This document shows, piece by piece, positions 3,695 to 56,657 of a stretch of 64,000 bases of DNA. The stretch is from a candidate division WOR-3 bacterium (GTDB lineage Bacteria; Hydrothermota; Tepidihabitantia; SM23-42). Location of the stretch: positions 138,637 through 202,636 of the forward strand of contig JAOUFJ010000002.1 of NCBI GenBank assembly GCA_029858255.1, in the 5' to 3' direction. Positions within the stretch are counted from its first letter, which is position 1. Each line of letters starts with the position of its first letter. The notes under the pieces are model-generated. The model had not been told where the DNA came from and did not search any database. It saw nothing but the letters and a program-made list of their open reading frames with translations. The position numbers were made by a program, and so were the translations under genes.

Positions 3695-3842
3695 AAATAA
3701 AAAATAATGCCATGTTGTCTAATCACATCTAAATCTGCCTTACCTAAAAGATTGGATTCAATGTCCGATTCGAATACAAGGTGGATTATACATTGCATTT
3801 TATGACTGTCAACAAATATCAAATAGTGCGATTTTCGATTTA

Positions 3843-5732: not shown

Positions 5733-5917
5733 ACTTACGCTCTATGATCCATACTAGTGCGAAAGAAATTTTACGTACGTTTATTATAAACAATATAAAG
5801 CATCGTGTCAATGCTCTAAAGCATTACATATTGACCAAATTATCAAATTGGGAGTGATATTATGCTACAGGACGTACATGTCCTTCAAAGTCGGGACGAC
5901 ATGCACTTGGATCACGG

Positions 5918-11863: not shown

Positions 11864-12023
11864 GAATACACACATATATTTCATAGATTCAGCCTAGACC
11901 CCAACACAGTATAGCTAGTTTGAATGCGAAAAGGGTATCTACTTTGCATCCCAGACCGGGGAAACTTGACATCCTTGGGTTTTGGATTATAATTTTGATG
12001 GAATTGTTGCCGCAATTACATTC

Positions 12024-13898: not shown

Positions 13899-15113
13899 GT
13901 GCCACGTATCGTTTGTTCGTTCTGTCAAAGACCAAAACCAGTGGTCAAAAGAATGTTTCGTGGTCACCGGTCTTATATTTGCGACGAGTGTATTAAGGTT
14001 TGCAGCAGTATCATGAAAGATGAGACAGAATTCTCCCCCCTGAGTGATTTTATTCTGCCGAAACCTGCTGAAATCAAATCTTTTCTTGATCAATACGTGA
14101 TCGGACAGGAAAGGGCAAAAAAGGCGATCTCGGTTTCAGTATATAATCACTACAAAAGGATCAAAAATAGGAAGAATGATATTGAAATACAGAAAAGCAA
14201 CATATTGCTGATGGGTCCCACCGGTACGGGTAAAACGCTTATCGCACAGACACTTGCCCGTTTACTGCATGTGCCTTTTTCCATCTCCGATGCGACACCG
14301 CTTACCGAAGCCGGTTATGTTGGCGAGGATGTTGAGAATATTCTGCTCCGGCTACTCCAGGCTGCGAACTACAATATACAAAACGCTGAGATCGGCATCA
14401 TTTACCTCGATGAGATCGACAAAATCACAAGAAAATCCGACTCGCCATCGATCACCAGGGATGTATCCGGCGAGGGCGTGCAGCAGGCTCTTCTAAAAAT
14501 CCTCGAAGGCACGGAAGCTAACGTTCCCCCGCAAGGAGGAAGGAAACATCCTGAACAGGAGTACATCCGGATCAACACATCTAATATATTATTCATCCTG
14601 GGCGGGACATTCACGGGTATCGAGGAAACAATCTCGAGGAGACTCGACCGCTCGGCCATGGGATTTTTGGGTATAACAAATGACAGAAAAAACAACTACG
14701 ACCAGGTTATCGAATCTATAGAACCGGATGACCTGGTGAAGTACGGATTGCTTCCGGAATTCGTAGGACGGGTCCCCGTGATTGCTACTCTCCACAAGTT
14801 GTCAAAGGATGCACTGGCTGAAATCCTCGTCAAGCCAAAGAACTCCTTGCTGAGACAGTATTCAAGATATTTCCAGATGGAAGGCGTGGTCCTCGAATTT
14901 ACCGACGATGCGATCGATGAACTAACTGAACAAGCACTGAAGTATAACACAGGAGCAAGAGCTCTAAGGTCAATAATGGAAAATCATATGCTGGACGTAA
15001 TGTTCCATCTTCCTGATAAGAAGGGTGTTGAGAAGTGCATCATCACACGCGAGGTCCTGCAACGAAAAGCAAACCCGGAATACATTGCGAAGAAAAGGAA
15101 AAAAGCACTATGA
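13899..15113 (+). CDS. clpX: ATP-dependent Clp protease ATP-binding subunit ClpX
   Basis: N-terminal C4 zinc finger 'CSFC...CDEC'. Walker A 'GPTGTGKT'. Follows clpP. Confidence 0.9.
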   Translation: MPRIVCSFCQRPKPVVKRMFRGHRSYICDECIKVCSSIMKDETEFSPLSDFILPKPAEIKSFLDQYVIGQERAKKAISVSVYNHYKRIKNRKNDIEIQKSNILLMGPTGTGKTLIAQTLARLLHVPFSISDATPLTEAGYVGEDVENILLRLLQAANYNIQNAEIGIIYLDEIDKITRKSDSPSITRDVSGEGVQQALLKILEGTEANVPPQGGRKHPEQEYIRINTSNILFILGGTFTGIEETISRRLDRSAMGFLGITNDRKNNYDQVIESIEPDDLVKYGLLPEFVGRVPVIATLHKLSKDALAEILVKPKNSLLRQYSRYFQMEGVVLEFTDDAIDELTEQALKYNTGARALRSIMENHMLDVMFHLPDKKGVEKCIITREVLQRKANPEYIAKKRKKAL

Positions 15114-15853
15114 ACATCTTCATGCCGCTCTATCTCAAACTGAGTAAGAAAAGGTTTTACCGCCCTTTTAAACCCCTCGGGACAAAGAAAAAATTGTGGC
15201 ACCTGGTATCTGTCCCCGGAAGCCCTGCGGAATTCTTCAGAGCGACGCCTTTTCTGGTAGGTCTGAGCAAGATTGGAAGTGTCGTTATGTTGATGCCAAA
15301 GAACCTTGAAACCATACGATCGTTTATGAAAACGAAACAATTCGAAATAATTCTATACGAGAAGAAACCGTCCCTCTTCTCAGAGGATTATAAACGCGTG
15401 GCCGTACAACTTGGTAACCGACATTTCCATTTTCTCATCGAACTGAACCAACCGGCGAACGTATCACTGCCCTACCTCGGCAATATCCAGAGGAGGGTAT
15501 CATTCTTTGACAAAAACATCTTTCCTTATTACAACATCCTTGTAAAAGACAGCTATACATCCTTGCTGGAATTTTTTGACATTGAATCAACAAATGGTCA
15601 AGAAATGTTCCACTTTTACAGCCGTGAACTGAAAACAACCGAAAAGAACATCCATAAATCACGTCCGTTACTATTCATCAACGAAGCCACCCCGATTGAT
15701 TGGGATGGTGGTAGCATTATCGTCGGAAAAGACATAATGCCCGATGATCCAGAAATCTGGAAGGTTTTGTATATCGCCGACGCCTATTATGGTAAGCAGG
15801 ATGCTTTCTACGAATTTGCTTTGCTACATAACAAGGAAATAGTGAAGAAGTAG
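15110..15853 (+). CDS. Hypothetical protein (start moved to ATG 15110; the ORF-track N-terminus overlaps clpX)
   Basis: ATGA overlap with the clpX stop. No clear motif. Confidence 0.4.
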   Translation: MNIFMPLYLKLSKKRFYRPFKPLGTKKKLWHLVSVPGSPAEFFRATPFLVGLSKIGSVVMLMPKNLETIRSFMKTKQFEIILYEKKPSLFSEDYKRVAVQLGNRHFHFLIELNQPANVSLPYLGNIQRRVSFFDKNIFPYYNILVKDSYTSLLEFFDIESTNGQEMFHFYSRELKTTEKNIHKSRPLLFINEATPIDWDGGSIIVGKDIMPDDPEIWKVLYIADAYYGKQDAFYEFALLHNKEIVKK

Positions 15854-15856
15854 ATC

Positions 15857-17014
15857 ATGATAATCAGACACCGCTTGAGTTCAAGAGCCCTGGCAATATA
15901 CTTCCTGATCGGCATTGCACTCATAGGCATCGTTACTTACATTTATTCGAACTACCTGATTCAGCGCATAAGAACGGAAACGGAAACGACTTCACGCCTC
16001 TTCGCAGAATTTGCACGTGGACCCAGTATCGACGAAGAGCGTCTTCTGGAGCTATTCTACGAAATGGTTATCAAGCGGATCGATTTTCCCGTGATACTGA
16101 CCGATGCCGAAGGGACACCCTATTCATCCAAGAATGTAGAAGAAAAAGACCTGGACAAAGCCGTGGAGAAGCTGGATCGCGTGCAAAGACCAATCCCCAT
16201 GGTGATCCGACAGGGTGCAGATTCGACACTACTCGGCCACGTGCACTGGGGATTGTCCCCCTTCACCAAATCACTGCAGATCCTGCCATTTGTTGAAACC
16301 GTATTTCTGATAGCTTTTCTCTTTCTTGGCTTTTGGGGCTATCTGATTTACCGCAAGAGCATCGAAGAAAAAATTTGGAATTCCCTCGCAAAAGAAACGG
16401 CTCATCAACTGGCAACACCTTTGTCTTCGCTCATTGGCTGGCTTGAGACGATAAAAGGAAACATAGATATTGAGGTATACAAGGGGATTCATGAAGACGC
16501 TATGCGGATGCGTGAAGTTCTCGAGAAATTCTCCCGTATCGGTCTCCCGCCGCGATTAGTTGAGAAAGACCCAACCGACGCGGTGAAAAACTCGGTGGAC
16601 TACATAAGGAGACGTGCCCATTCAAAAATAAAATTCACCGAGAAATACGGACGATTGCCCGCAGTCAGATTCGATGATGTTCTACTTGGATGGGCAATAG
16701 AAAATATTTTGAAAAACGGGTTGGATGCAATTGGTGACCAGTCCGGTGAAATATCAATTAAAACCAGAAAATATGAAACTTCTGGAGCGATTATCGAGAT
16801 AACGGACACTGGGAGGGGCATCAAAAGCAGCGGGAACATATTCAAACCGGGTTATACGACGAAGAAGTACGGGTGGGGACTGGGTCTGGTTCTTACAAAG
16901 AGGATCATCGAGGAATACCACGAAGGAAAATTATCTCTAAAGGAAACAAGTTCAAAGGGAACATGTTTTGAAATCTACATACCGGGAGTGAAAAATGAAA
17001 ATTCTTTGGATTGA
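15857..17014 (+). CDS. Sensor histidine kinase (2 TM plus HisKA/HATPase), PorY-like partner of the downstream PorX-like regulator
   Basis: H-box 'HQLATPLSSLIGW'. G-boxes 'DTGRGI...GWGLGL'. Overlaps the regulator gene by 20 nt (translational coupling). Confidence 0.7.
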   Translation: MIIRHRLSSRALAIYFLIGIALIGIVTYIYSNYLIQRIRTETETTSRLFAEFARGPSIDEERLLELFYEMVIKRIDFPVILTDAEGTPYSSKNVEEKDLDKAVEKLDRVQRPIPMVIRQGADSTLLGHVHWGLSPFTKSLQILPFVETVFLIAFLFLGFWGYLIYRKSIEEKIWNSLAKETAHQLATPLSSLIGWLETIKGNIDIEVYKGIHEDAMRMREVLEKFSRIGLPPRLVEKDPTDAVKNSVDYIRRRAHSKIKFTEKYGRLPAVRFDDVLLGWAIENILKNGLDAIGDQSGEISIKTRKYETSGAIIEITDTGRGIKSSGNIFKPGYTTKKYGWGLGLVLTKRIIEEYHEGKLSLKETSSKGTCFEIYIPGVKNENSLD

Positions 17015-18503
17015 TGACGAAATAGATCTGCTGAAACCATTCATCTACCTCCTGCAGAAAGAGGGCTACGAGGTGAAAACAGCACCCAGCGGAGAAGACG
17101 GTGTGAATATGGCAAACAAGGAACAATTTGACCTGATTTTCTTAGATGAAATAATGCCCGGAGTTGACGGTCTGGAGGTGCTTAGAAAAATAAAAAGCGA
17201 GAGCTCACAACAACTCGTTGTAATGGTTACAAAAAGCGAAGAAGAAGATCTGATGACTCAGGCATATGGCGGTTGGGTCGATGACTATATAACAAAACCA
17301 TTCAGTTTCAACCAGTTACTTTCAGTATTGAATCGCACATTAAAACGCCGCGTGATTATCGAAGAAAAAATGGCGGAAGAGTATTCAACCCAGCTACGGA
17401 CAATGATAGAACCGACCGGATATAGCGACTGGATTGAATATTATCGAAATATTGTATCATGGGACACGCGCCTTTTAGAATTCGGAAGCAAAGATCTTAA
17501 GACGATCCATGAGGAGAAAAAACGGGAAGGCAACGCCGGCTTCGCCAAATTCATTGAGAGCCAGTACTCCAGTTTTCTCAAAGGCAAAGGACCCATCTTG
17601 TCTCACCAGATCTTCTCGCACCTTGTTTTTCCTACATTAAACGACGGGCCAATCTACTTTGTAATCTTTGATTCGATGCGCCTCGACCAGTACATGAAGT
17701 TGATCCCCTTTCTGAAAGACTACTATGAGATAAACAATCACTACTACTATTCGATACTGCCGACTGCCACACCGTACTCAAGGAACTCTATATTCGCAGG
17801 ATTGCTGCCTCTCGATATTGTACAGCTGTATCCTCAATACTGGACTTACGATGAGAAAGGGCAGAACAGATTCGAACGCGATCTGTTCAATGAGCAATTG
17901 AAGCGCAACAACTTACGGGTTAATTTCTCCTTCTACAAACTATCGTCAATTTCCGAAATAGAGAGAAGCATTGAAAAAATAAAGGGAGAATCAACCGAGA
18001 TAGTCATCATAGTCATTAACTTCTTTGACATGCTTATCCATTCCATTCCCGGCAGAGGCGATATGAAAGGTATACTTGACGATGAACGTGTACTGCTGAA
18101 TATACTGGCATATTGGTTCCCCCTGTCGCCGATTTTCGAATTATTCAAGAGTCTACTGGTCAATGATAGGAGGGTCATACTGACCACCGACCATGGTTTC
18201 ATAAGGGTGCGCCGGCCTACCATTATCTACGGGGGACGCGAGATATCGCCAAACCTTCGCTACAAATACGGCCCGGCTTTGAGGGTAGACAAGAAAACTG
18301 CGTTGCTCCTGAACAGTCCAGGAGACATCTGCTTGCCGAGTGAAGATCCTTCGGTCCGATTTGCCATTGCCAAAGAAGATCACTACTTCATCTATCCAAC
18401 GAAGCCGACCGAGTACGAAAGGGAATTCAAGTACACATTCCAGCACGGCGGTATATCCACCGAGGAAATGATCCTTCCGGTAGGAATACTGAAACCAAGA
18501 TAA
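16995..18503 (+). CDS. Response regulator with CheY-like receiver and C-terminal PglZ/alkaline-phosphatase-superfamily domain (PorX-like T9SS regulator)
   Basis: Receiver 'KILWIDDEIDLL...DLIFLDEIMPG'. The 350-aa C-terminal domain resembles PglZ, as in Porphyromonas PorX. Confidence 0.7.
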   Translation: MKILWIDDEIDLLKPFIYLLQKEGYEVKTAPSGEDGVNMANKEQFDLIFLDEIMPGVDGLEVLRKIKSESSQQLVVMVTKSEEEDLMTQAYGGWVDDYITKPFSFNQLLSVLNRTLKRRVIIEEKMAEEYSTQLRTMIEPTGYSDWIEYYRNIVSWDTRLLEFGSKDLKTIHEEKKREGNAGFAKFIESQYSSFLKGKGPILSHQIFSHLVFPTLNDGPIYFVIFDSMRLDQYMKLIPFLKDYYEINNHYYYSILPTATPYSRNSIFAGLLPLDIVQLYPQYWTYDEKGQNRFERDLFNEQLKRNNLRVNFSFYKLSSISEIERSIEKIKGESTEIVIIVINFFDMLIHSIPGRGDMKGILDDERVLLNILAYWFPLSPIFELFKSLLVNDRRVILTTDHGFIRVRRPTIIYGGREISPNLRYKYGPALRVDKKTALLLNSPGDICLPSEDPSVRFAIAKEDHYFIYPTKPTEYEREFKYTFQHGGISTEEMILPVGILKPR

Positions 18504-18588
18504 ACAGATCGTTACACGGATAATGGTTTCGAAAAACGAATCGGACAACGGCATCGTCTGACGTCTCACGGCACAATAACACACCGCC

Positions 18589-18632
18589 AGTTTCGTTAAT
18601 CTCGTTAGTATCGTTATTCCCGTTGGAAAACC
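18589..18632. repeat. Family A intergenic repeat ('CGTTAATCTCGTTA...ATCGTTATTCCCG') inside a 540-bp gene-free convergent intergenic region
   Basis: Shares a 35-40 nt motif with 35779-35820 and 60204-60242. An inverted copy is at 60385-60420. Confidence 0.55.
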
Positions 18633-18867
18633 GGATCTCGATTCACGATATTGAACCTGCACGTATCTAGTATCTTTCACTACCTGAAGTAATACGAATA
18701 CGAAATACGATCAACGATTACGAAACCGTATCGCTTCTCCGAACCGTCAAGCGTTACACGATTCGTTTTGAACGTCCCGACCCAACAACCATCTGCGTCA
18801 TTATTGGTGCCGATTATATCTGGCTCCCCATGCGCCACGATATTAACGGGCAAAACGTCGTTGTTTA

Positions 18868-18935
18868 TGTCATTTGTATTTAAGATTTTGAATTTGTTTA
18901 GTAATTCGATATTAGGATTTCGGATTTGAGGTCCC
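18868..18935. repeat. Dispersed AT-rich intergenic repeat, family B, copy 1
   Basis: 'CATTTGTATTTAAGATTTTGAATTTGTTTAGTAATTCGATATTAGGATTTCGGATTTGAGG'. Compare 28903, 46755 and 58062. Confidence 0.6.
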
Positions 18936-19042
18936 GGGTTTCGTTACCGTAACCGCCCAATGTCGCCTGTCAAAAATGTGGGGTCTCTACCGGAGGGCGA
19001 AATATCAAATTACCAAAAAAATAAAGTAGAGACCCCGATTTT

Positions 19043-21112
19043 CTATTCTGGAGCAAAAGTGAAAGGAATTGACACCCTCTGTTCAAAAGAAGTGCCGTCT
19101 TTCGTAGCAGGATTGAATTCCCACTGACGGGCGGCAGCCAGTGCAGCCTGCTCACACGCTGGATTGCCAAAACTCTTGATGATTGTAGCATCCTTGACCG
19201 ACCCGTTAGTACCAACGAGAACTCGTACAACAATCGTACCAGAAGCTGCAAACTCGAGAGCGGCAGCAGGATACTTGGGCTGGACGCGCCTGACAGCCTC
19301 CGCACGTGTGATGACGGAAGGTTTAGGAGGTGCGGGCGGCAGCTCGGCCACAAGCGACGCGGACCCGGTATCGGCAACCGCTGTATCACTTTGTGCTGCT
19401 GCCTCAAGAAGTCTCTCAGGTGCGATCACTGAAGGCGGTTCCTCCCTGGCCGTTCCTGTGGTTTCGAGGACAGCTGGCAGAGATGTAACACCCGACGTCC
19501 CTTCTGTTGACGTCTCGGTTGGAGGAATTGCCGATGCCAGGCTGACTCTACGTTCTGCTTCAGGGATCCAATACTCGGTTGCGTTCGCCAATCGCACCTC
19601 ATGGTCAATACCCCTTACTCGCTTGTAAGTCGCGGCGATCCTGTCAGGTACTACAAGAAAAGAATAGGGTTGTTCCTCATAAACGACCTTCTGGAACTCA
19701 TTCCAGACGGCTCTTGCCTTATTACGATCCAGCATGGAAATGCCTGCATCGATTAATGAATCTACAAGCGCGTTGGAATAGGACACAAGGTTATACCGAC
19801 CTTTTGAATGCCAATACAGGGTCGGGTCGATTTTATCACCGACGCGCCAGCCCATCACGAAACCATCGAATTGCCTGTCCACAAGAACGTTCACAAAATC
19901 ATTTGCCGCGAGTGTCTGCGTAATCACTCTTATACCAATCTTCTGCAGATCATCTGCAATGTAGCGCAATATGGCGAGTCGGTCAGGGTTTTCCGAGTTG
20001 GTGATGATTCTGACCGTAAAGTCCGTTCGATCCTTGTCAATTACCCTATTACGATTGTAGTCCACGAAACCCTGTTCCCGCAATAGAGAACGGGCTCCTT
20101 CTATATCATAGATAATAGGATGAACTTCAGAATTATATGCCCACGACGATGGGGGTAACGGTCCCAATGAAATCTCCCCCCTACTGCCGTAGATGTCGCT
20201 CAGTATCCGCTGTCTGTCAATAGCCATCGCTAATGCCTTACGCACGCGCACATCCTTCAGAAACGGATGAGTCAGGTTCCATCCAATATAAAGATAGGAA
20301 CTACCAGGTTCAGAATAGATACCGACATTATCATTATTCCTAATTGCTTCTGCAGTACTGGGTGTAATATTAAACATCATTTCCAGATCGCCGTCCCGAA
20401 AATCTTCCAGCATTTCATTTGTGCTCCTGTAATGCCTGATCCGTATCTCATCTAGGGGTGGCCGGCCGTCATAATAGGTTTCGTTGGCAACCAGTATCAT
20501 CACTGAACCCCGAACCCATTCTTCCACACGATAAGGTCCATTACCAGTAGGCGATGCACCGAACTCACTACCGAGTTGTTCGTTGATATGTCTGGGCACT
20601 GGCATGATGTCCGAATCAGTCAAAATATCCGCGTATACCTTGTCAAATGTGAATTTTATCGCGTAATCACCGAGCACCTCAACCTTATTAATAAAACGGA
20701 GCGCATTGATATTCGGATAATTATTCGAGGGCTCCTTCATCTGCTCGTAAGTGTAGAGCACATCATACGCTGTCACCGGTTCCCCATCCCACCATTCAAC
20801 ACCTTTTCTTAAATAATACGTAATTGATTTCAAGTCTTCCGAAAATTCCCATGACTCAGCAAGAACTGGCCTCATTTTGCCGGTTCCCGGATCGATCTCA
20901 TGGAGGCGCAAGAAAAGTAAGTCGAGGATTTCATTGGACGTGAATACCGACGGTTCAAGCGGACTGATTACCGCAGGGATTTCCATAGTACCTACAGTCA
21001 AAATTCCACCGGGCTCACCGTCGAATCTTTCGACCTTACCCTGGCAGGAAAAAAACACGAATACAAGAAGCACAGTGGCAATTGGCAAACGTCGCATATC
21101 AGCCTCCTTCAT
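19043..21112 (-). CDS. Lipoprotein fusion: signal peptide with lipobox, family-5 solute-binding domain (SBP_bac_5, oligopeptide-type), Pro/Ala-rich linker and TonB C-terminal domain
   Basis: N-terminus 'LLVFVFFSC'. C-terminus 'PPAPPKPS...VQPKYPAAALEFAASGTIVVRVLVGTNGSVKDATIIKSFGNPACEQAALAAARQWEFNPA' matches the TonB_C consensus. Confidence 0.65.
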   Translation of the reverse strand: MKEADMRRLPIATVLLVFVFFSCQGKVERFDGEPGGILTVGTMEIPAVISPLEPSVFTSNEILDLLFLRLHEIDPGTGKMRPVLAESWEFSEDLKSITYYLRKGVEWWDGEPVTAYDVLYTYEQMKEPSNNYPNINALRFINKVEVLGDYAIKFTFDKVYADILTDSDIMPVPRHINEQLGSEFGASPTGNGPYRVEEWVRGSVMILVANETYYDGRPPLDEIRIRHYRSTNEMLEDFRDGDLEMMFNITPSTAEAIRNNDNVGIYSEPGSSYLYIGWNLTHPFLKDVRVRKALAMAIDRQRILSDIYGSRGEISLGPLPPSSWAYNSEVHPIIYDIEGARSLLREQGFVDYNRNRVIDKDRTDFTVRIITNSENPDRLAILRYIADDLQKIGIRVITQTLAANDFVNVLVDRQFDGFVMGWRVGDKIDPTLYWHSKGRYNLVSYSNALVDSLIDAGISMLDRNKARAVWNEFQKVVYEEQPYSFLVVPDRIAATYKRVRGIDHEVRLANATEYWIPEAERRVSLASAIPPTETSTEGTSGVTSLPAVLETTGTAREEPPSVIAPERLLEAAAQSDTAVADTGSASLVAELPPAPPKPSVITRAEAVRRVQPKYPAAALEFAASGTIVVRVLVGTNGSVKDATIIKSFGNPACEQAALAAARQWEFNPATKDGTSFEQRVSIPFTFAPE

Positions 21113-21158
21113 CCTATCTAATCAAATTATATTGGGGATATGAATTATGTCAAGAGAC

Positions 21159-26127: not shown

Positions 26128-26724
26128 TCATACAGCAGGCAAAGTATCTGACAGCGCTATGATGGTAAGCTGACAGATCCTCTTGAGCGTCTCTAATATA
26201 CCGATGTTTCTAATTGCGACGCTCTCGAAATACTGATAATCTTCATTATTCAATTGTGTTTGGAGCTCTTTGATCTCCATGATGTTCGGTAGATCACGTT
26301 TGTTGTACTGAATTATCATCGGAATATCCTTCAGGATTAAATCATACGCTCTCAGATTATCCTGCAGGTTGTACATACTCTCGATGTTCTCCTCCAACCG
26401 TTCCCGCTGAGAATCGACCACAAAAACCAATCCATCGACGTTTCTCAAAACCAGTCTGCGCGATGCATTATAGTAAACCTGACCAGGTACCGTATACAGA
26501 TGGAACCGTAGTTTCCAACCCTTGATCTCACCCACATCAATAGGCAGGAAATCAAAGAATATTGTTTGGTCCAGATCGGTTGCAAGACTCATCATCTGGC
26601 CCTTTCGGTCAGACGATAATTTAGCATATATCGAACGCAAATTGGTCGTCTTGCCACCCAGGCTCGTCCCGTAGTACACGATCTTGAGGTTGAGCTCTTT
26701 ATTGGCGTAGTTTAAGTTCGCCAT
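26128..26724 (-). CDS. mglA: MglA-like Ras-superfamily GTPase (motility/polarity regulator family)
   Basis: Near end-to-end match to MglA: 'KIVYYGTSLGGKTTNL', 'LFFDFLP', 'RFHLYTVPGQVYY' and 'IQYNKRDLPN'. Confidence 0.8.
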   Translation of the reverse strand: MANLNYANKELNLKIVYYGTSLGGKTTNLRSIYAKLSSDRKGQMMSLATDLDQTIFFDFLPIDVGEIKGWKLRFHLYTVPGQVYYNASRRLVLRNVDGLVFVVDSQRERLEENIESMYNLQDNLRAYDLILKDIPMIIQYNKRDLPNIMEIKELQTQLNNEDYQYFESVAIRNIGILETLKRICQLTIIALSDTLPAV

Positions 26725-26727
26725 AGT

Positions 26728-28215
26728 TCAGGTTATTTCAACAAGATTAAGTGAATTATCCACCGTAAACGTACTAATACCGTCGGTCAGGACCGGTGCC
26801 GGGTTACCTTCTCCAAAAGGCACCAGGGTCTTGAGCATGGCCACGTCTGATTTACGCAAGAAAGCCTCGGGTTTAGGCTCCATCGATTTACAGTCATCCA
26901 AAATATCAGGAGCTTGATGCTCTACATATTCTTTGAACTCACGAAGGAAAACTTCAAGATACCTTTTCTCCATCGAAAAACCAGCCGCTTTCTTATGCCC
27001 TCCGAAATCCAGGAAAAACTTTCGCATCCGGTAGAGCAACTTGTACAGGTCGAAATCGCAACTCCGTAATTCACCTATGCATTTTTCATTTCTTATGCCA
27101 ATTATCAAAGAATTGCGCTTAAAATAATCGCGTAGACGCGCTGCAACAGAACCAAGAAAGTGCTGCTTAGAAAGGGGCACGAGCGAAATAACCAGCCTCG
27201 ACGTCACCTCGGCACTCGATATCACCTCACTGAACATGTTGTCAATTTCCTGCCGGCGTCTTTGATCCGTGTCTTTCAGAGTAGAGTAGATGTCTCGGAC
27301 CCTACTCAAATCATTTTCAACAAAGAAATCGACACCCAATCTCGGATCGATATAAGCTGCCGAGCCGATTGTCGGCAAGACTTCTTTGAGTACCCTGTGC
27401 ATTTCGACCTCACCATACTCTCTAAGACACACAGCCCACGCTTCATCGACATGATTGACCAAACTCAACCCATGGATACAGAATACCCTGTTCTCGTCAC
27501 ATAACGCGACACGGTCTGCAAAAGTGCCGATACAAACGATGGGATAGAATGATTTCTTCAAACCATAGAATTCATTCGCGCTCATGCTGAAAAACTCCTG
27601 ATAGAGGAACTGCGCGAGTTTAAAGGCAACACCAACACCAGCCAGGTCCCGGAAAGGATATCGTGAATCCTGTCGCTTCGGGTTCACTGCAGCAATCGGA
27701 AAATCGGTGCGCTTAGTCTCATGGTGGTCGCAAATAATCGCCTTCAATCCCTCTTGTTCGGCAATACGAAAGTTCTCTTCATTGCTGATGCCAAAATCTA
27801 CGGTCAGAAGCAACCTAACTCCCTTCTCTCGATACGAAGAAAGAACCTGAGGATTCAATACGTAACCATCCTTCTCACGAATGATCGGGTAAACATGCAC
27901 GGCGCCGCTGCCCTTGGTAATATCATCCAATGCCTTGTACATGACTGCGGCCGATGTATATCCGTCTACATCGTCGTGCGTGTAAATGAGTATCCCCTCC
28001 CCACCTTTTGCCGCGGTTATGATCTCTTCAGCAGCACGGGCGATGTCCGGCAACAAACCAGGATCGTGGAGCTGTGAAGAATCCGGATAGAGATACCTTT
28101 TTGCCTCGCTATACTCTGGATAGCGTCGGGCAATAATTTCTGCCACCTCCCGCGGAATCGAAAAATCGGTGGCATATTTTTCAACGAGCATTTTGTCGGC
28201 ATCACGCAGTGACAT
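26728..28215 (-). CDS. RecJ-like DHH/DHHA1 phosphoesterase (single-stranded-DNA exonuclease RecJ family, short form)
   Basis: 'ILIYTHDDVDGYTSAAV', 'LLLTVDFGISN', 'ICDHH' and 'GGHKKAAGFS' (DHHA1) motifs. Confidence 0.7.
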   Translation of the reverse strand: MSLRDADKMLVEKYATDFSIPREVAEIIARRYPEYSEAKRYLYPDSSQLHDPGLLPDIARAAEEIITAAKGGEGILIYTHDDVDGYTSAAVMYKALDDITKGSGAVHVYPIIREKDGYVLNPQVLSSYREKGVRLLLTVDFGISNEENFRIAEQEGLKAIICDHHETKRTDFPIAAVNPKRQDSRYPFRDLAGVGVAFKLAQFLYQEFFSMSANEFYGLKKSFYPIVCIGTFADRVALCDENRVFCIHGLSLVNHVDEAWAVCLREYGEVEMHRVLKEVLPTIGSAAYIDPRLGVDFFVENDLSRVRDIYSTLKDTDQRRRQEIDNMFSEVISSAEVTSRLVISLVPLSKQHFLGSVAARLRDYFKRNSLIIGIRNEKCIGELRSCDFDLYKLLYRMRKFFLDFGGHKKAAGFSMEKRYLEVFLREFKEYVEHQAPDILDDCKSMEPKPEAFLRKSDVAMLKTLVPFGEGNPAPVLTDGISTFTVDNSLNLVEIT

Positions 28216-28835: not shown

Positions 28836-28902
28836 ACTACCATACGGCAAATTATAGTCAAGAACAGAGTTTTGTCAATCAACCACTCAAAATCTAGAAG
28901 AT

Positions 28903-30831: not shown

Positions 30832-31899
30832 TCAGGACTGCCCATCAGTACCGAGTCGTTTTCTAATGTATTCGGCGCGTCTGATGTCCCTGTCCTGTTC
30901 TTCCAATAACTCGCCGAAATAAAGTTGAATGTTTGCTGGCCTTGATATGACCATTATTTCATTGAGCGTCTGTAGTGTTATGTCTTTGACAATCCCAACG
31001 CCGACACCGAACCTTAACGCAGACAGCAAATTGAGAACTTCGATACTGTTAATGGTCCGTGCAGCTCTTAGAATCGCCACGCTGCGAAAAATCTTGTCTT
31101 CAAACTCACTGCGTGCCTTCGTCATTATGACATCACGAGCTTTTTTCTCAATATCGATAATCATCTTCGCCAGTTTCGTTATTCTCTCGAGCAGATCATC
31201 CTCTTTGAAACCAATCGTATACTGGTTCGATATTTGAAAAAGGCTTCCCCTGATCTCACTTCCCTCTCCATAAATGCCTCTAACGGTCATACCTATCTGA
31301 AGTGCACCCTTCAATACCTTCTCGACCTCATTCGTAAAAACCAGACCGGGAAGATGCATGAACACCGATGCCCTCATCCCCGTCCCGATATTGGTGAGGC
31401 ATGAGGTAAGAAAACCATAGCCATCATTATATGCAAAACTGACGTTGTCACCGATGAACTCTTCGGTTCTGAACACTTCGCTTGAGAGATTGGTGAAATT
31501 CAGGCCGCAACCGATGCCTTGAAACCGCAAGTGGTCTTCTTCATTTATCATCACTGAAAGATTTCCGCCCTCACTTATGAATACGCTTGTGGGTTTCTCC
31601 TTGGTGATAAAACCAGGCGAAACAAGATGGCATTCGAGTAGTGATTCTCTCTCCAACGGTTTCAACTCACGCAAATTCAGGAACTCACCATTTATTTTGC
31701 CATCTATTATCGAACGTATCAAACCGATCAGATATTCAGCATCGGATTGTTTCATCTTCAATTCAAAAGGAATACTGTCAAGGTTCCGGGCGATTCTTAT
31801 GCGTGATGACACGACGATCTCACTCTCCTCCCCGCACGGCAGTGTTTTGTCCGATGAGGGGATCAGCCAGCGGATATTATCAAACATCTTCGACACCAT
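30832..31899 (-). CDS. mcsB: Protein arginine kinase McsB (ATP:guanido phosphotransferase)
   Basis: Phosphagen-kinase-like catalytic domain. It sits downstream of a McsA-like zinc-finger/UVR protein. Confidence 0.75.
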   Translation of the reverse strand: MVSKMFDNIRWLIPSSDKTLPCGEESEIVVSSRIRIARNLDSIPFELKMKQSDAEYLIGLIRSIIDGKINGEFLNLRELKPLERESLLECHLVSPGFITKEKPTSVFISEGGNLSVMINEEDHLRFQGIGCGLNFTNLSSEVFRTEEFIGDNVSFAYNDGYGFLTSCLTNIGTGMRASVFMHLPGLVFTNEVEKVLKGALQIGMTVRGIYGEGSEIRGSLFQISNQYTIGFKEDDLLERITKLAKMIIDIEKKARDVIMTKARSEFEDKIFRSVAILRAARTINSIEVLNLLSALRFGVGVGIVKDITLQTLNEIMVISRPANIQLYFGELLEEQDRDIRRAEYIRKRLGTDGQS

Positions 31900-32353
31900 A
31901 GCCCTTGAGTTTATCCCTTATCTTAGCAGCATCTTCATACGCTTCACTGTCCAGGGCTTTCTTGAGGTCTTCTCGTAACTTGTAGATCTCAAACCCTTCC
32001 TTGGTGCCGGAAGAAGACTTCCTGCCTATATGACGATCGCTCTGATGGATCTGCTTGATTAGATGCCTGATGTGATCATCAAACGTAGCAACGCATTGAG
32101 CACAACCGAACCGTCCCACTCTCTTGAATTCAGCCAAAGACATGTAACAACTCGGGCAGATCACTTTTTCGTCCTGGGCACTCTTCTGCCTAAGCAGCTT
32201 CTGAAGAATCTCCAGGGGCGATAATTTCTTAGTTCCAAGCAGTCCTCGTTTGGATGCACACTCATCGCAGAGATGCAATTCAACAGTTTTATCGGGCAGT
32301 ACTTCCTTAAAAAAAATCGAGGCCGGCTTGTTCTTACAGTCGTCACACAGCAT
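31880..32353 (-). CDS. mcsA: McsA-like activator (CxxC zinc fingers plus UVR domain)
   Basis: 'CDDCKN', 'CDEC', 'CPSC' and 'CAQC' pairs. C-terminal UVR motif 'ALDSEAYEDAAKIRDKL'. Confidence 0.6.
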   Translation of the reverse strand: MLCDDCKNKPASIFFKEVLPDKTVELHLCDECASKRGLLGTKKLSPLEILQKLLRQKSAQDEKVICPSCYMSLAEFKRVGRFGCAQCVATFDDHIRHLIKQIHQSDRHIGRKSSSGTKEGFEIYKLREDLKKALDSEAYEDAAKIRDKLKGYGVEDV

Positions 32354-33083
32354 ATAGCCTTCCTTCCTTCAACCTGTAAACCTGAGTGCCCACCTTCGCA
32401 ATATCCAACGAATGTGTAACAAGGACGATCGTCCTATCTTCGTCTTTTAGACTGCCAAATACTTCGAGCAGTTTATTCGTATTACCCTCGTCGAGATTGC
32501 CTGTCGGCTCATCAGCGAAGATTATCAGAGGGTCATTGACCATCGCCCTGGCTATTGCCACTCGCTGACGCTCCCCACCGGAGATCTCATCGGGTAGACG
32601 GTGCTGTTTATCTCCGATGTCGAATCTCTCCAGCAAATCGAGTGCTTTTTGATACGCGATCGGCGGCGTAACGCCGTTGACCAATGCCGGTAAAGCGACA
32701 TTTTCCAGACATGAAAATTCGGATAGAAGGTGATGAAACTGAAAGACGAATCCCATCTTTTTATTCCTGACCTGCGATAGACGAATATCATCGTGAGAAG
32801 TGATATCAACAGAATCAAAGACAACGGTCCCGCCGGTCGGCCGGTCAAGACCACTTATTAGATGCAACAAGGTCGATTTGCCGCTCCCCGAAGGGCCGAG
32901 AATCACTACAAAACTGCCTTTCTTGACCTTAAGGTCAACACCATGGAGAACATCGATAGTCTCGTTCTTCAGATAATATGTCTTGCTAAGATCGGAGGTG
33001 TCGAGGATGATATCACTCATTACGCAATGCCTCAACGGCGGTGAGTTCGGTCGCTCTTTTTGCCGGGTATATGGTCGAAACAA
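32343..33083 (-). CDS. ABC transporter ATP-binding protein (LolD/MacB-type)
   Basis: Walker A 'GPSGSGKST'. Signature 'ISGGERQRVAIARA'. Confidence 0.8.
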   Translation of the reverse strand: MFRPYTRQKERPNSPPLRHCVMSDIILDTSDLSKTYYLKNETIDVLHGVDLKVKKGSFVVILGPSGSGKSTLLHLISGLDRPTGGTVVFDSVDITSHDDIRLSQVRNKKMGFVFQFHHLLSEFSCLENVALPALVNGVTPPIAYQKALDLLERFDIGDKQHRLPDEISGGERQRVAIARAMVNDPLIIFADEPTGNLDEGNTNKLLEVFGSLKDEDRTIVLVTHSLDIAKVGTQVYRLKEGRLYAV

Positions 33084-34209
33084 AACTTATCAAGATCGCT
33101 GCCACTGCAGTTATAATGAAGTCATTCACATCCATTTCCACAGGTAGTGTTTCAATGAAATAGATATCGCCAGGCAAAGAAACCTGATACTTATCAAGAA
33201 TCGTACACGCGAAAAATGCGAACGCCAACCCGAGAGTTGTCCCGATGAGACCGATGATGCTACCATGATATATGAACACCCGCATGATCTGCCGGGCAGT
33301 AAAACCAAACGACCGCATGATTCCTATCTCTTTTGTCTTCTTCTTCACCATATTTATTAGCGTGCCCACAATATTGAAACCAGCAACTATTATGATCAAG
33401 ACCAACACAATAAAAGTAATGATTTTTTCTATCTTCAGTGCGGCAAAAACAGACCGGTTGGATTCAATCCAATCTTGTGCACGGTACGGATAGCCAAGGT
33501 CGTTCTCAATACGCCGGGAATATTGCGGAGCTCTGTATATATCATCGACCTTCACCGCAACACCGCTTATGCTTTTGCCCATTTCGAATAATGACTGGAC
33601 ATCCTTCAGATCCATGAAAATTAGAGTGGCATTGTAATCATAATAACCAAAATCGAATATACCGTTGAGAATAACTCTTTTCGCCCGAGGCACCAAACCA
33701 AGTTGATCCCCGAAAGGCAAGGCGATAACAAGCGAATCGCCAATACTCACGCCAAGACTATGGGCGAGTTCAACTCCGATGACACAGCCGCCGTCAAGTT
33801 TGAAGGCTCCACTGATCATCTTCTGCCCTATCTCGGTGATATCCGTCTCCAACTTATCATCAACACCCTTTATGACAACCCCGTCAAGGTGTTGCCTGTA
33901 TTTGATGACCGACTTCTGGTACACAAATGGCGCCGAGGCTTGAATAAAATCGTATTTTTCCAATGTTTGCATCACACTGCCATAATCGCGAATGGGTTCG
34001 TTGAAGTATTTGCGAACAATAATGTGCGGTGTTCCGCCAAGTATCCGTCGACGCAGTTCGTTCTGGAAACCGTTCATCATCGAAAGTGTAATCAAGAGCG
34101 CGGCAACACCGACGAAAATCCCGCCGATGGCAATTATCGTAGAGAACGAAAGGAATTTTCTCCTGCGTGACAGCAGGTAACGACGTGCGACAAAGAATTC
34201 AGTGTTCAC
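33013..34209 (-). CDS. ABC transporter permease, FtsX/LolCE family (MacB-like periplasmic domain)
   Basis: N-terminal TM, large periplasmic domain and a C-terminal 3-TM FtsX domain. Paired with the upstream ATPase. Confidence 0.7.
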   Translation of the reverse strand: MNTEFFVARRYLLSRRRKFLSFSTIIAIGGIFVGVAALLITLSMMNGFQNELRRRILGGTPHIIVRKYFNEPIRDYGSVMQTLEKYDFIQASAPFVYQKSVIKYRQHLDGVVIKGVDDKLETDITEIGQKMISGAFKLDGGCVIGVELAHSLGVSIGDSLVIALPFGDQLGLVPRAKRVILNGIFDFGYYDYNATLIFMDLKDVQSLFEMGKSISGVAVKVDDIYRAPQYSRRIENDLGYPYRAQDWIESNRSVFAALKIEKIITFIVLVLIIIVAGFNIVGTLINMVKKKTKEIGIMRSFGFTARQIMRVFIYHGSIIGLIGTTLGLAFAFFACTILDKYQVSLPGDIYFIETLPVEMDVNDFIITAVAAILISFVSTIYPAKRATELTAVEALRNE

Positions 34210-40130: not shown

Positions 40131-40842
40131 AATAGGGACAGGCTACTTTTTTTTAGGCCTCCCCCTGGGCCTGATCGTTATCTCTATCCCCAATTCCCTG
40201 CATACTTCGGCACGCCATTCTTCATCACCATAAGGTCCTTGTCGCCGAATGCATGTCCTTAATTGCTCAAGCTCAATTCCCGGCAGTGGCTCGTCGACCA
40301 ACTCTCCCCAATTTTCAGGCAAATGCACTGGCAATTCATCTGTTAGGACACACTTCTCACCCGCAATTCTAAACGAATGGGAAGACCATCGCCAGTCCGC
40401 CGCTGTTGTAACCAAACCTGCTCTCACGGGATTCCCTTCAACATATCTGACCAGATTTATCAGATGCTCATCCTGTTTCGCAATGAAACTCTTGAAGCGG
40501 CCCTGCCAAACATGTCCGCACGTACGATAGTGACCATGATAACGCCGAACATGGCTTGTCATAAACCACTGCATCCATCTACTGAGATCTTCTCCCCTCT
40601 CGGGCATGACGACGAAGTGGAAGTGATTTGGCATTACGCAATAAGCAAAAATAGATATCGGTATCCTTGTCTTAGCTTCCTCCGCCAAGTACAAAAAAGC
40701 ATCGTAGTCTTTCTCTTTGTGAAATACTTGTTGTTTTCCATTACCTCGATTCAGAACATGGTAAACGAATCCATCGGCAAGACCTCTTGCGATGCGGGGC
40801 ATGATTCTGAAGGCCTTAAAAAAAGTAGCCTGTCCCTATTAT
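40128..40842. mobile_element. IS200/RAYT-type element: a Y1 HUH transposase gene flanked by 33-bp inverted repeats
   Basis: 40128-40160 'ATAATAGGGACAGGCTACTTTTTTTTAGGCC' is the reverse complement of 40810-40842, with one T-run indel. Confidence 0.75.
40143..40802 (-). CDS. IS200-like / REP-associated tyrosine transposase (Y1 HUH)
   Basis: HUH 'MPNHFHFVV'. Catalytic Tyr motif 'LVRYVEGNPVRAGLV'. 219 aa. Confidence 0.8.
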   Translation of the reverse strand: MPRIARGLADGFVYHVLNRGNGKQQVFHKEKDYDAFLYLAEEAKTRIPISIFAYCVMPNHFHFVVMPERGEDLSRWMQWFMTSHVRRYHGHYRTCGHVWQGRFKSFIAKQDEHLINLVRYVEGNPVRAGLVTTAADWRWSSHSFRIAGEKCVLTDELPVHLPENWGELVDEPLPGIELEQLRTCIRRQGPYGDEEWRAEVCRELGIEITIRPRGRPKKK

Positions 40843-45518: not shown

Positions 45519-45564
45519 CGTCTGTATCAGTTGACACTTAGCCGCCAATGACTATAATAAAACC

Positions 45565-47633: not shown

Positions 47634-47930
47634 ATGGCAAATAAATGGGATACGGTCGTAGGCACCACAGAGTACGCTGAAAATCTCGCGAGGATCAATA
47701 AAATAGCACAGGACAATGGGTACGTACTCAATCCCGATGAAGATAGACTCCGAAAAGTAATCGGCCTCATGACTATGAATAACACTGAATTCGGTAAATA
47801 TTATTGTCCATGTAAGCAAAACCACCCGCTGAATCCCCACAAGGATACCCCTTGTCCCTGTCCTGAAATGAAGAATGAGATCTTCAAAGACGGGCATTGT
47901 TTTTGCAGACTATTTTACAGAAGAACGTAG
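47634..47930 (+). CDS. Ferredoxin:thioredoxin-reductase catalytic-subunit-like protein (FTR-like CPC...CPC...CHC protein)
   Basis: 'YYCPCKQNHPLNPHKDTPCPCPEMKNEIFKDGHCFCRLF'. Strong RBS AAAGGAGG. Confidence 0.6.
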   Translation: MANKWDTVVGTTEYAENLARINKIAQDNGYVLNPDEDRLRKVIGLMTMNNTEFGKYYCPCKQNHPLNPHKDTPCPCPEMKNEIFKDGHCFCRLFYRRT

Positions 47931-47940
47931 GAGAAAGAAA

Positions 47941-49200: not shown

Positions 49201-49212
49201 GGAGGAACAATA

Positions 49213-49989: not shown

Positions 49990-49990
49990 C

Positions 49991-50782: not shown

Positions 50783-50895
50783 CGAATACCGGGGCGTCTT
50801 CAATTTTACACAGAGGCACCCCGCAATTGAACCACGTCACGAAAAAAAGTCAGGCTAAACACTTGACTGGGGCATGACGTACCATTATTATACAC

Positions 50896-56562: not shown

Positions 56563-56657
56563 CAGAGTTCATCGATTGTCCGTGCATATGGACTGGAGAT
56601 AGACCATCATTTCCGACCCCAACCTTGACATCATTATACATATCACTATAATTTCAC

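Follow-up and report, generated by a model that had tools for sequence, protein, structure and literature searches.

The window, a 64,000-nucleotide stretch of DNA from a candidate division WOR-3 bacterium, contains a minus-strand open reading frame at positions 19043-21112, mechanically called at 689 aa. In one continuous reading frame, it joins a signal peptide, a family-5 solute-binding domain, a spacer, and a TonB C-terminal domain (Table 1). The true start is probably the second ATG (M6, nt 21097), which would give a protein of 684 aa, since a Shine-Dalgarno sequence precedes M6 and the homologues (670-705 aa) begin there, with MRR or MKK at their N-termini. GGAGG-type sites are found at the equivalent position in most orthologous loci.

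Table 1 Features of the fusion gene and its flanking elements (positions in the window)
Feature	Position	Strand	Residues	Remarks
Sigma-70 promoter (predicted), TTGACA-16 nt-TATAAT	21126..21153	(-)		12/12 consensus match; inside the 46-bp gap after the MscS gene
Shine-Dalgarno sequence AAGGAGG	21103..21109	(-)		5 nt ahead of the second ATG; read from the sequence
Coding sequence, probable start M6 to stop	19043..21097	(-)		684 aa; mechanical ORF start 21112 (689 aa)
Signal peptide, lipobox-like end VFFS-C	21044..21097	(-)		Cys23 is the probable lipidated first mature residue
Family-5 solute-binding domain (oligopeptide/dipeptide/nickel type)	19544..21010	(-)	aa 35-523	PF00496, AF2, Foldseek
Spacer, hypervariable, rich in Pro/Thr/Ala/Val/Glu	19325..19543	(-)	aa 524-596	Predicted disordered; pLDDT <50 (AF2)
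Spacer helix motif A-P-E-R-L-L-E-A-A-A-Q-S	19388..19423	(-)	aa 564-575	Conserved; AF2 helix 567-575
TonB C-terminal domain and lead-in strand	19046..19324	(-)	aa 597-689	YP motif Y614-P615; last strand VSIPFTF
Terminator-like hairpin, 11-bp perfect stem GGGGUCUCUAC/GUAGAGACCCC, then ACAUUUUUG	18980..19036	(-)		Begins 7 nt past the stop codon

In 35 of the 39 main-clade WOR-3 loci, a perfect TTGACA-16 nt-TATAAT motif precedes the orthologue by 50-90 nt. The idea that an exceptionally strong promoter makes the protein very abundant was withdrawn, because the perfect consensus is the norm in this organism: seven such promoters occur in the 64-kb window, compared with 0.03 expected, and each heads a gene. 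The hairpin behind the stop codon has a fold energy of -23.2 kcal/mol (z = -3.1 against shuffled sequences). Neither the gene nor the 540-bp gap downstream of it gave matches in Rfam. With its own promoter and terminator, as far as these can be read from the sequence, the fusion gene forms a separate transcription unit. An operon with the upstream UDP-sugar and MscS genes was also considered and is weakened by these two flanking elements.

The presence of a family-5 substrate-binding domain, which had been proposed from the sequence, is well supported. The SBP_bac_5 model (PF00496, Pfam) matches aa 79-433 over profile positions 1-357 of 368 with 268.7 bits, far above the cutoff of 32.4. AF2 models aa 35-523 as a two-lobe periplasmic-binding-protein fold with pLDDT mostly 80-96, and the best PDB match of this model in Foldseek is AppA of B. 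subtilis (1XOC; E 2.5e-48, TM 0.84 on target). The family profile matches the same protein with E 1.8e-82, and AppA has an Asp at the position aligned with the invariant D429. The fusion thus shares the fold and sequence family of the AppA/OppA/DppA-type solute-binding proteins (SBPs) over this domain, as well as the lipoprotein-type N-terminus found in many such binders. In contrast, the latter end after the binding domain and lie beside OppBCDF-type genes (e.g., in Haliea), while the fusion continues into a TonB spacer and C-domain and remains an orphan throughout the WOR-3 loci examined. As for the ligand, a peptide is suggested by the nearest homologue, AppA, which binds a nonapeptide. It stays a guess because nickel, haem, opines, sugars, and murein peptides are also among the ligands of family-5 SBPs.

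The C-terminus had been described as a textbook TonB_C domain, and it deserves this description. The quoted peptide is present, and the models TonB_C (PF03544, Pfam; aa 611-687) and tonB_Cterm (TIGR01352, NCBIfam) score 67.5 and 65.1 bits against cutoffs of 24.6 and 27.1, respectively, so that the HMM scores of both domains of the protein exceed their thresholds. The domain matches the solved TonB C-domains 2K9K, 1XX3, 1U07, 2GRX, and 2GSK, is modelled with pLDDT 85-93 (AF2), and carries the YP motif in every family member examined. The 'PPAPPKPS' linker noted ahead of it exists as a string but forms just the tail of a longer spacer, about 75 residues in all, with low AF2 confidence. Identity among family members is 9-54% in this spacer versus 27-83% in the domains. 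From the end of the SBP domain to the YP motif, the median distance is 90 aa (range 72-110; 18.7% Pro); the corresponding stretch of canonical WOR-3 TonB, from the end of the transmembrane (TM) helix to YP, measures 95 aa. Within the spacer, one helical motif is conserved: in a 28-sequence main-clade alignment, P565, E566, and A571 never vary, conservation of L569 and E570 is at least 90%, and deep branches keep a degenerate form, (P/A)E-x-[IL]-L. Since the rate of evolution of TonB_C does not exceed that of the SBP domain and the spacer varies freely save for this motif, both ends of the protein are under selection.

A homology search returned 772 matches. The 120 best-scoring cluster representatives among these are without exception near full length and contain both domains. 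In an exhaustive search, about 16 family clusters at 50% identity were followed by a sharp drop to plain SBPs. The fusion was found only in WOR-3, Stahlbacteria, and Hydrothermus genomes and in unnamed MAGs, and it occurs in every sampled WOR-3 branch, including Stahlbacteria and Hydrothermae; matches in other named phyla covered the SBP part only. One locus was detected in each of the seven closed genomes with the fusion, and the gene appears to be a single-copy core gene. Closed WOR-3 genomes include CP070802, CP070686, CP070705, CP070664, CP070795, and CP070834. An artefact, whether a frameshift, a chimeric assembly, or two separate genes mistaken for one, can practically be dismissed. The frame is continuous in more than 120 independent assemblies, the seven closed genomes included, down to 27-31% identity, and purifying selection acts on both domains and on the junction motif. 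Indeed, the site near 19420 at which a frameshift had been suspected encodes the conserved PExLLEAAA motif.

According to the original prediction, the protein has a lipoprotein signal in place of the TM anchor of TonB. The N-terminus is indeed of the lipoprotein type, a cleavable-type signal peptide that ends in a Cys. Each of the 119 full-length homologues analysed has a Cys behind the hydrophobic region, and the 28-sequence alignment shows no exception at this position; the protein is therefore a probable lipoprotein. The residue at -1 is S, A, or G in 57% of the homologues, while the others have V, T, F, Y, L, or I. Deep-branching members often have canonical lipoboxes (LSSC, IAGC, LAGC), and the sequence of the h-region is not conserved across homologues. 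A disulfide between the two invariant cysteines, C23 and C653, in place of lipidation was considered and rejected, as the Hydrothermae branch keeps the N-terminal Cys with a Leu at the position of C653; canonical TonB also has Leu there.

The residues after the Cys raise the question of surface exposure. In most members they read A-K-K-E-E or similar (family consensus C-A-K-K-E-E), resembling the Bacteroidota lipoprotein export signal C-X-K-(D/E)2, and the window encodes proteins with T9SS-type tails, which implies FCB-like envelope machinery. A lipoprotein on the cell surface, similar to SusD/RagB, which would supply a TonB-dependent transporter (TBDT) with peptides captured outside the cell, is nevertheless highly improbable. 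The export signal as tested in its defining study has no K at +4, its position is critical, and it was validated in Bacteroidota only. The window protein itself reads C-Q-G-K-V-E, and a TonB_C domain with a TonB-length spacer has no known role outside the cell.

No Opp-type ABC permease or ATPase, ExbB/ExbD, or TBDT gene lies within the 64-kb window. The lack of adjacent ABC permease and ATPase genes, first noted for the window, extends to about 45 orthologous WOR-3 loci, in which no Opp-type permease or ATPase was found by tblastn within 10 kb; the control locus from Haliea (L053) has Opp-type ABC genes beside its SBP gene. A regex signature scan was set aside, as it missed the LolD-like ATPase encoded in the window. 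TBDT genes are located 2-7 kb downstream of the fusion in six loci, in two different arrangements. A conserved linkage to a TBDT or the Ton operon was considered but is unsupported: it is limited to these six loci, the TBDT gene is convergent, and in CP070686 about 300 kb separate the fusion gene from the Ton operon.

Upstream, the main-clade gene always follows a same-strand cell-envelope block (GT2, LPG_synthase_TM, UDP-glucose dehydrogenase, UXS, with or without MscS), and in the Hydrothermae branch an M23 (LytM-type) peptidase gene ends 4-45 bp ahead of the fusion gene. This neighbourhood would suit an envelope tether or peptidoglycan-linked structural protein, in which the lipid anchor is inserted in one membrane, the SBP domain binds murein stem peptides like MppA, and TonB_C docks on an outer-membrane protein, so that the layers are stapled together as by Lpp, Pal, or OmpA in other phyla. 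MppA is among the structural matches (Foldseek, rank 28), an apparent single-copy core gene is what would be expected of a structural component, and an unusually thick wall is described in the paper on the WOR-3 isolate. Such a structural role appears unlikely, however. With a separate promoter and terminator, the upstream synteny need not be functional; the nearest solved relatives are free-peptide binders and not MppA, and the protein has no peptidoglycan-binding domain.

A comparable orphan is LpqW of mycobacteria, a family-5 SBP lipoprotein recruited to cell-envelope glycolipid biosynthesis. It, too, is an SBP-fold lipoprotein with no known cognate ABC transporter and adjoins envelope sugar genes, but it is not known to have a TonB_C domain and belongs to a different type of envelope. 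The separate promoter of the fusion gene makes a functional link to the sugar genes beside it doubtful.

Directly downstream, in convergent orientation, the window and about 25 main-clade loci encode a receiver-PglZ regulator and a histidine kinase that has a periplasmic loop. Other systems have kinases that depend on SBPs, and the fusion could be a sensor module whose SBP domain signals the presence of a ligand in the periplasm to a signalling protein of the membrane, e.g., this kinase/PglZ pair, with TonB_C as the docking part. This is very unlikely, as convergent genes are not co-transcribed and the pair is missing from the Sec362/TBDT-type loci and the Hydrothermae branch, where the fusion is kept. 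A brief inspection of the kinase also revealed no TonB-box-like element.

More can be learned from the comparison with the phylum's own TonB. The canonical WOR-3 TonB (204 aa, e.g., L039:17411-18031) is 36% identical to the fusion over 140 aa (E 6e-19). The alignment spans the spacer and the C-domain, including AALAAARQW-F-PA and VSIP-x-F, and the terminal strand is conserved (VSIPFTF in the fusion vs. VSIPVNF). With TonB, the energy transducer of the Ton system in E. coli and WOR-3, the fusion shares a homologous Pro-rich spacer, equal in length to that of the canonical WOR-3 protein, and a C-domain with the YP motif and terminal strand. In contrast to TonB, it has no SHLS-type TM helix for ExbB binding, no conserved Ser/His pattern at the N-terminus, no D-box, and no conserved exbBD linkage. 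In canonical WOR-3 TonB, the D-box 'EIITMVEE' stands right after the TM helix and matches ISVTMVT of E. coli. In the fusion, the SBP domain takes this place, and the sole conserved spacer motif (PExLLEAAA) is helical and not a Pro-flanked strand. Because the TM helix and the D-box are missing, ExbBD-driven force cannot be transmitted in the known way; going by its primary structure, the protein cannot act as an ExbBD-driven transducer. The database name 'TonB family protein' is a domain label, not a function. Most likely, the fusion would have originated when a family-5 SBP lipoprotein replaced the TM helix and D-box in a copy of the phylum's own TonB.

ExbBD and TBDT genes do exist elsewhere, as a canonical Ton operon (ExbB-ExbD-ExbD-TonB-lipoprotein-TBDT) in WOR-3 genomes that carry the fusion. 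The N-terminal 30-40 residues of the operon TBDT include PPTVIEVKGVTAVAE, and those of the L030-type TBDT include NVYVFTADEI. A probe for WOR-3 TBDTs with the OMP_b-brl_3 fragment of locus L002 gave four partial proteins only.

The best explanation, put forward tentatively and at somewhat less than an even chance, is that of a peptide binder, anchored by a lipid and tethered to outer-membrane transporters through their TonB boxes. The lipid would hold the protein in a membrane of the envelope, and TonB_C would dock by beta-strand addition on the TonB box of TBDTs or, alternatively, on a TonB-box-like strand of another envelope protein. As the motor-coupling module is missing, the fusion would be a passive tether and not be pulled by ExbBD. 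The TonB-length spacer would keep the ligand-binding domain within reach of the transporters' periplasmic exit, so that imported peptides could be caught at once and then kept or passed to a carrier in the inner membrane whose genes lie elsewhere. Yeast extract is the only substrate on which the cultured WOR-3 strain, a diderm, grows (isolate paper), and oligopeptide import by TBDT-type systems such as RagAB is known from the FCB group. A periplasm-spanning peptide binder that touches TonB-dependent receptors, as first suggested, is thus plausible in view of the canonical Ton operon in WOR-3, the homology to its TonB, and the equal spacer length. The signalling role offered as an alternative found no specific support.

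Several points count against the tether. The TBDT linkage is neither conserved nor operonic, no locus has a nearby Opp-type permease, and few ABC transporters are reported in the isolate. Furthermore, a motor-less TonB_C would be expected to compete for TonB boxes with the true TonB. In E. coli, overproduced periplasmic TonB fragments inhibit transport. The protein might accordingly be a decoy or regulator of TonB-dependent uptake, which fills TonB boxes and throttles transport, perhaps as set by the loading of the SBP domain, giving feedback from the periplasmic peptide level to outer-membrane import. The loss of the TM helix and D-box that canonical WOR-3 TonB has would fit, and with a C-domain so close to that of the resident TonB, competition for the same sites is the default physical expectation. 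Regulation of this kind is still quite unlikely: a pure inhibitor needs no 490-aa binding domain conserved as strongly as TonB_C throughout the phylum, and no features of a regulated promoter were seen at the gene, only the standard consensus promoter of the organism.

The tether has a non-covalent counterpart in the reported contacts of TonB with FhuD and BtuF in E. coli (Carter et al. 2006; James et al. 2009; both cited in PMC3813593). In both cases, a periplasmic binding protein and the periplasmic part of TonB are brought together near a TBDT, in the WOR-3 protein covalently. The E. coli contacts are weak and formed by separate proteins, with SBPs of the siderophore/B12 class and a motor-coupled TonB, whereas the SBP of the fusion belongs to family 5 and replaces the motor-coupling end. 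A further idea, rather doubtful at present, is that TonB_C recognises TonB boxes exposed on loaded TBDTs and would recruit the lipoprotein only to transporters about to deliver, as a covalent form of the disputed scaffold model. If true, the fusion would be an energy-independent relay from outer-membrane import to periplasmic capture and core equipment of a phylum with few ABC transporters.

TonB_C is also used as a portable docking module in MxcH-type TBDTs (at the N-terminus), in the tail of myxobacterial AgmX/PglI, and in LIC_10042-like proteins. Their NCBIfam models match aa 607-687 weakly, far below the family cutoffs, and none of them pairs TonB_C with a solute-binding domain. Literature searches on the SBP-TonB_C fusion and on Ton and peptide transport in WOR-3 yielded nothing specific. 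The architecture is already auto-annotated in databases, as 'TonB family protein' or 'peptide/nickel transport system substrate-binding protein'. Neither name describes the protein, and the present findings bear on its annotation.

The periplasmic pick-up of cargo released by TBDTs is poorly understood, and the question whether TonB helps to position binding proteins has so far been addressed by just a few interaction studies, done in vitro with E. coli. A phylum-conserved fusion under selection is 'Rosetta-stone' evidence that both functions belong together, and it indicates that the TonB spacer and C-domain can be reused without the motor-coupling end. As one polypeptide with two separable domains, it would make a simple test construct. 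For the phylum WOR-3, of which a single member has been cultured, the fusion provides a conserved marker gene and a physiological clue on peptide scavenging, and it hints at a so far unstudied route by which outer-membrane transporters could hand nutrients over to a binding protein in the periplasm.

The single ORF of the original prediction, joining a family-5 SBP to a TonB_C domain, is present in the window, and its translation is 689 aa. Both PF00496 and PF03544 lie over their curated cutoffs (see table), and NCBIfam agrees with Pfam (tonB_Cterm, 65.1 bits). Opp4A, NikA, DppA and similar NCBIfam models gave partial matches, far under their equivalog cutoffs. The true start is probably M6 (nt 21097), not nt 21112, because a Shine-Dalgarno sequence (AAGGAGG) lies within the first five codons of the mechanical ORF, right ahead of this second ATG, and homologues begin with MRR or MKK at the same position. 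Such a start gives 684 aa, the length of the closest relatives. A 145-aa ORF on the same strand and a 154-aa antisense ORF overlap the coding sequence; both are most likely spurious, as by-products of the gene's GC-richer, Ala/Pro-rich 3' part.

The fusion is a phylum-specific family and no artefact. Among 5.8 billion proteins searched, 772 matched. The best 120 cluster representatives all contain both Pfam domains, with 51-90% identity to the fusion, and 116 of them reach at least 97% query cover, the other four being shorter entries. Those of the 120 with a name carry the label 'TonB family protein' or 'peptide/nickel transport system substrate-binding protein', and their stated source is candidate division WOR-3 or TA06 DG_78. 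An exhaustive HMMER search of 1.84 billion representatives yielded only about 16 full-length fusion clusters at 50% identity (658-716 aa); beyond them the score drops from 861 bits to about 280, the level at which ordinary SBPs of 520-560 aa start. Scanning GTDB at one genome per species yielded 53 loci. Full-length fusions occurred there only in WOR-3, Candidatus Stahlbacteria, Candidatus Hydrothermus pacificus and unnamed MAGs, and the Haliea, Gemmatimonadetes and Dehalococcoidia matches covered the SBP part only. The suggested search in other genomes has located the fusion across WOR-3, with one locus in each of seven closed genomes. These sequences are already public and auto-annotated. 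No description of the architecture was found in the literature on the fusion or on WOR-3 Ton and peptide transport, nor do SBP fusions appear in a 2025 survey of periplasmic force transducers.

A Pfam scan of the roughly 50 window ORFs detected no Opp-type permease or ATPase, ExbB/ExbD or TBDT in the 64 kb, the sole ABC pair being LolCDE/MacB-like. In 0.9 Mb of locus DNA searched by tblastn with an ABC ATPase probe, the WOR-3 loci matched only at an ABC-2 exporter pair (locus L041) and an MsbA-like half transporter (locus L032); the Haliea control locus showed the expected SBP, OppB, OppC, OppDF row. The claim that no cognate ABC permease or ATPase is adjacent holds for the window and for these loci. 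In the main clade, GT2, LPG_synthase_TM, UDP-glucose dehydrogenase and UXS genes, with or without MscS, lie 41-140 bp upstream on the same strand, and in the Hydrothermae branch the fusion gene is preceded by two M42 aminopeptidase genes and an M23 peptidase gene. The cell-envelope block and the M23 peptidase speak for a structural or murein-linked envelope tether, which we regard as unlikely. Downstream, main-clade loci come in two forms: some have a PglZ response regulator and a histidine kinase in convergent orientation, others a secreted protein of 362 aa with a convergent TBDT beyond it. That the fusion acts as a sensor with the neighbouring kinase is very unlikely.

In most main-clade WOR-3 genomes, the regulator, the kinase and a conserved 272-aa protein form a trio that separates ClpX from the fusion gene. 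In one subclade, the gene for the 362-aa protein, on the strand of the fusion gene and directly 3' of it, replaces the kinase/regulator pair (L030:12244-13332), with equivalents at L013, L014, L016, L024, L026, L033, L035, L036 and L038; a convergent Plug-domain TBDT follows in five of the ten loci. The 362-aa protein has a weak, sub-threshold FlgD_ig match near the C-terminus, which may be a T9SS-type tail. Several WOR-3 genomes keep an Arf/Ras-like GTPase gene and its neighbour ahead of the GT2/UDP-sugar block.

Transcription signals probably set the gene apart from this upstream block. A perfect promoter lies in the 46-bp upstream gap and, despite varying flanks, is kept at 12/12 positions in 35 of 39 main-clade loci, and an 11-bp terminator-like hairpin with a U-run (z = -3.1) follows the stop codon. 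The upstream synteny therefore probably reflects no operon. The window holds seven such perfect promoters against 0.03 expected by chance, each just 5' of a gene or operon start. Near-perfect sigma-70 consensus promoters seem to be standard in the source organism, so the fusion promoter marks an independent transcription unit and not exceptional strength. The stretch between the hairpin and the end of the convergent regulator gene matched no Rfam family and contains no notable ORF; other loci have 40-820 bp at this place.

Elsewhere in the window, an McsB/McsA-like pair, typical of Gram-positive protein-arginine kinase systems and here in a diderm genome, lies directly beside the ABC pair. Selenocysteine machinery is encoded as well, and the organism probably makes selenoproteins.

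Features of the window and of the WOR-3 Ton operon
Feature	Position	Strand	Match or remark
Fusion ORF	19043-21112	-
SBP_bac_5	aa 79-433		PF00496, 268.7 bits (cutoff 32.4)
TonB_C	aa 611-687		PF03544, 67.5 bits (cutoff 24.6)
Overlapping ORF, 145 aa	18970-19407	-
Overlapping ORF, 154 aa	19164-19628	+
Conserved 272-aa protein	15035-15853	+	no Pfam match
Histidine kinase	15857-17014	+	no recognisable HisKA
PglZ-output response regulator	16995-18503	+	alkaline-phosphatase-like
Non-coding gap	18504-18979		about 480 bp
Arf/Ras-like small GTPase	26128-26724	-	L001 orthologue matches PF00025
495-aa protein	26728-28215	-	RecJ-like by eye only
McsB-like ATP:guanido phosphotransferase, UVR-motif (McsA-like) protein	30832-32353	-
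LolD/LolC-like pair	32343-34209	-	ABC_tran, FtsX/MacB_PCD
IS200/Y1-type transposase	40143-40802	-	only obvious mobile element
SelA	45643-46599	+
SelB	56658-58058	+
AIRS/AIRS_C protein	58192-60114	+	could be selenophosphate synthetase
Three HGD-D (2-hydroxyacyl-CoA dehydratase-type), two BcrAD/BadFG-type activator ATPases, two URO-D-family, B12-binding corrinoid protein, SAM methyltransferase	47875-56562	+	looks like a corrinoid-dependent methyltransfer or dehydratase module
Perfect promoter	3785-3812	-	TTGACA-N16/17-TATAAT
Perfect promoter	5783-5811	-	TTGACA-N16/17-TATAAT
Perfect promoter	11966-11993	+	TTGACA-N16/17-TATAAT
Perfect promoter, fusion gene	21126-21153	-	TTGACA-16-TATAAT
Perfect promoter	28851-28878	-	TTGACA-N16/17-TATAAT
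Perfect promoter	45531-45558	+	TTGACA-N16/17-TATAAT
Perfect promoter	56625-56652	+	TTGACA-N16/17-TATAAT
Ton operon, CP070705.1	L039:14146-19540		2-7 kb from fusion gene
Ton operon, CP070686.1	L058:8477-16863		about 300 kb from fusion gene
ExbB	L039 operon		PF01618
Two ExbD	L039 operon		PF02472
TonB, 206 aa, N-terminal TM	L039 operon		PF03544, 89 bits
Lipoprotein, 360 aa	L039/L058 operon, after TonB		no Pfam match
TBDT	L039/L058 operon, after lipoprotein		CarboxypepD_reg-Plug-barrel (Pfam)
728-aa protein	L039/L058 operon, after TBDT		no Pfam match

Conservation was read from one alignment of 28 main-clade members and another of 23 members that reaches down to the deepest branches (27-41% identity). 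The sequence of the hydrophobic N-terminal segment varies, yet a Cys terminates it in 119 of 119 proteins (invariant C23); 57% have S, A or G at position -1, and textbook lipoboxes are frequent in deep branches. A TonB-type TM helix requires a conserved face. A variable segment with a constant Cys is instead the pattern of a lipoprotein signal peptide, so that the predicted lipoprotein-type N-terminus stands and the fusion protein is, judging from sequence, likely a lipoprotein. The acidic stretch after the Cys points towards a surface-exposed SusD-like lipoprotein, a role that we consider most improbable. The only cysteines of the window protein are C23 and C653, the latter at the position of a Leu in the canonical TonB motif. 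A C23-C653 disulfide was rejected as the reason for the invariant C23, since the Hydrothermae branch lacks C653.

The nearest relative of the SBP domain is B. subtilis AppA, both in profile comparison (E 1.8e-82) and in fold (Foldseek match to 1XOC, E 2.5e-48; AF2 model mean pLDDT 78). The fusion is thus a family-5 member by sequence and fold, but its gene lacks the family's usual operon. The expected Pro/Ala-rich linker is a predicted disordered spacer rich in Pro, Thr, Ala, Val and Glu, nearly unconstrained (9-54% identity between members) except for a short helix motif, PExLLEAAA, whose P565, E566 and A571 are invariant in the main-clade alignment and which is recognisable in every deep branch. 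A Pro-flanked lead-in (PPKPSVITRA) and TonB_C with its YP motif follow. Conservation in the main clade is unusually high for the core SFGNPACE-x2-A-x2-AA-x2-W-x-F-x-PA. In nearly all sequence pairs, TonB_C is conserved no less than the SBP domain, which indicates selection on both ends.

Ton genes were sought by motif scan and then Pfam in the closed genome CP070705. The proposed search for TBDT and ExbBD genes elsewhere uncovered a conserved ExbB-ExbD-ExbD-TonB-TBDT operon there and in CP070686, and orphan TonB paralogues occur elsewhere. Canonical TonB is very conserved across the phylum (73-100% identity among the best 120 of 422 matches) and co-occurs with the fusion in CP070705, CP070686, CP070664 and SM23_42. 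The two align at 36% identity over 140 residues (E 6e-19), spanning spacer and C-domain and including AALAAARQW-F-PA and the final strand VSIP-x-F. In solved complexes (TonB-BtuB/FhuA), the final strand pairs with the TonB box. Immediately after its TM, canonical TonB carries EIITMVEE, which closely resembles ISVTMVT, the E. coli D-box gripped by the ExbD dimer. The fusion has its SBP exactly where canonical TonB has TM and D-box. The distance from the SBP end to YP has a median of 90 aa (range 72-110), against 95 aa from the TM end in canonical TonB. The most economical reading of these sequences is that the fusion derives from WOR-3's own Ton system. Despite its TonB_C and TonB spacer, it should not be filed as a TonB energy transducer, since the defining TM anchor and D-box are both missing. 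A TBDT lies close to the fusion gene in six loci; this may be chance, because several TBDTs per 2.3-2.8-Mb genome would place one near a few per cent of loci.

A TonB copy would have lost its motor-coupling head, and a lipid-anchored peptide binder would have taken that position. The resulting motor-less protein would be unable to transmit force and would retain all parts for spanning the periplasm and docking on TonB boxes. With the head lost and these parts kept, we tentatively favour a passive tether that parks the binding protein at the periplasmic mouth of TBDTs; for it we infer lipidation, membrane of anchoring, ligand and TonB-box binding alike. The chief obstacle to this reading is the competition with real TonB that is to be expected of a motor-less TonB_C. 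A decoy or regulator of TonB-dependent uptake builds on this competition and appears rather improbable, somewhat more so than the envelope tether; both rank above the sensor and SusD-like readings. The passive tether echoes the non-covalent contacts reported for TonB-FhuD and TonB-BtuF (PMC3813593). It fits a diderm phylum whose sole isolate grows on yeast extract alone and has few ABC transporters, and oligopeptide import via a TBDT is known in the related FCB group, e.g., RagAB.
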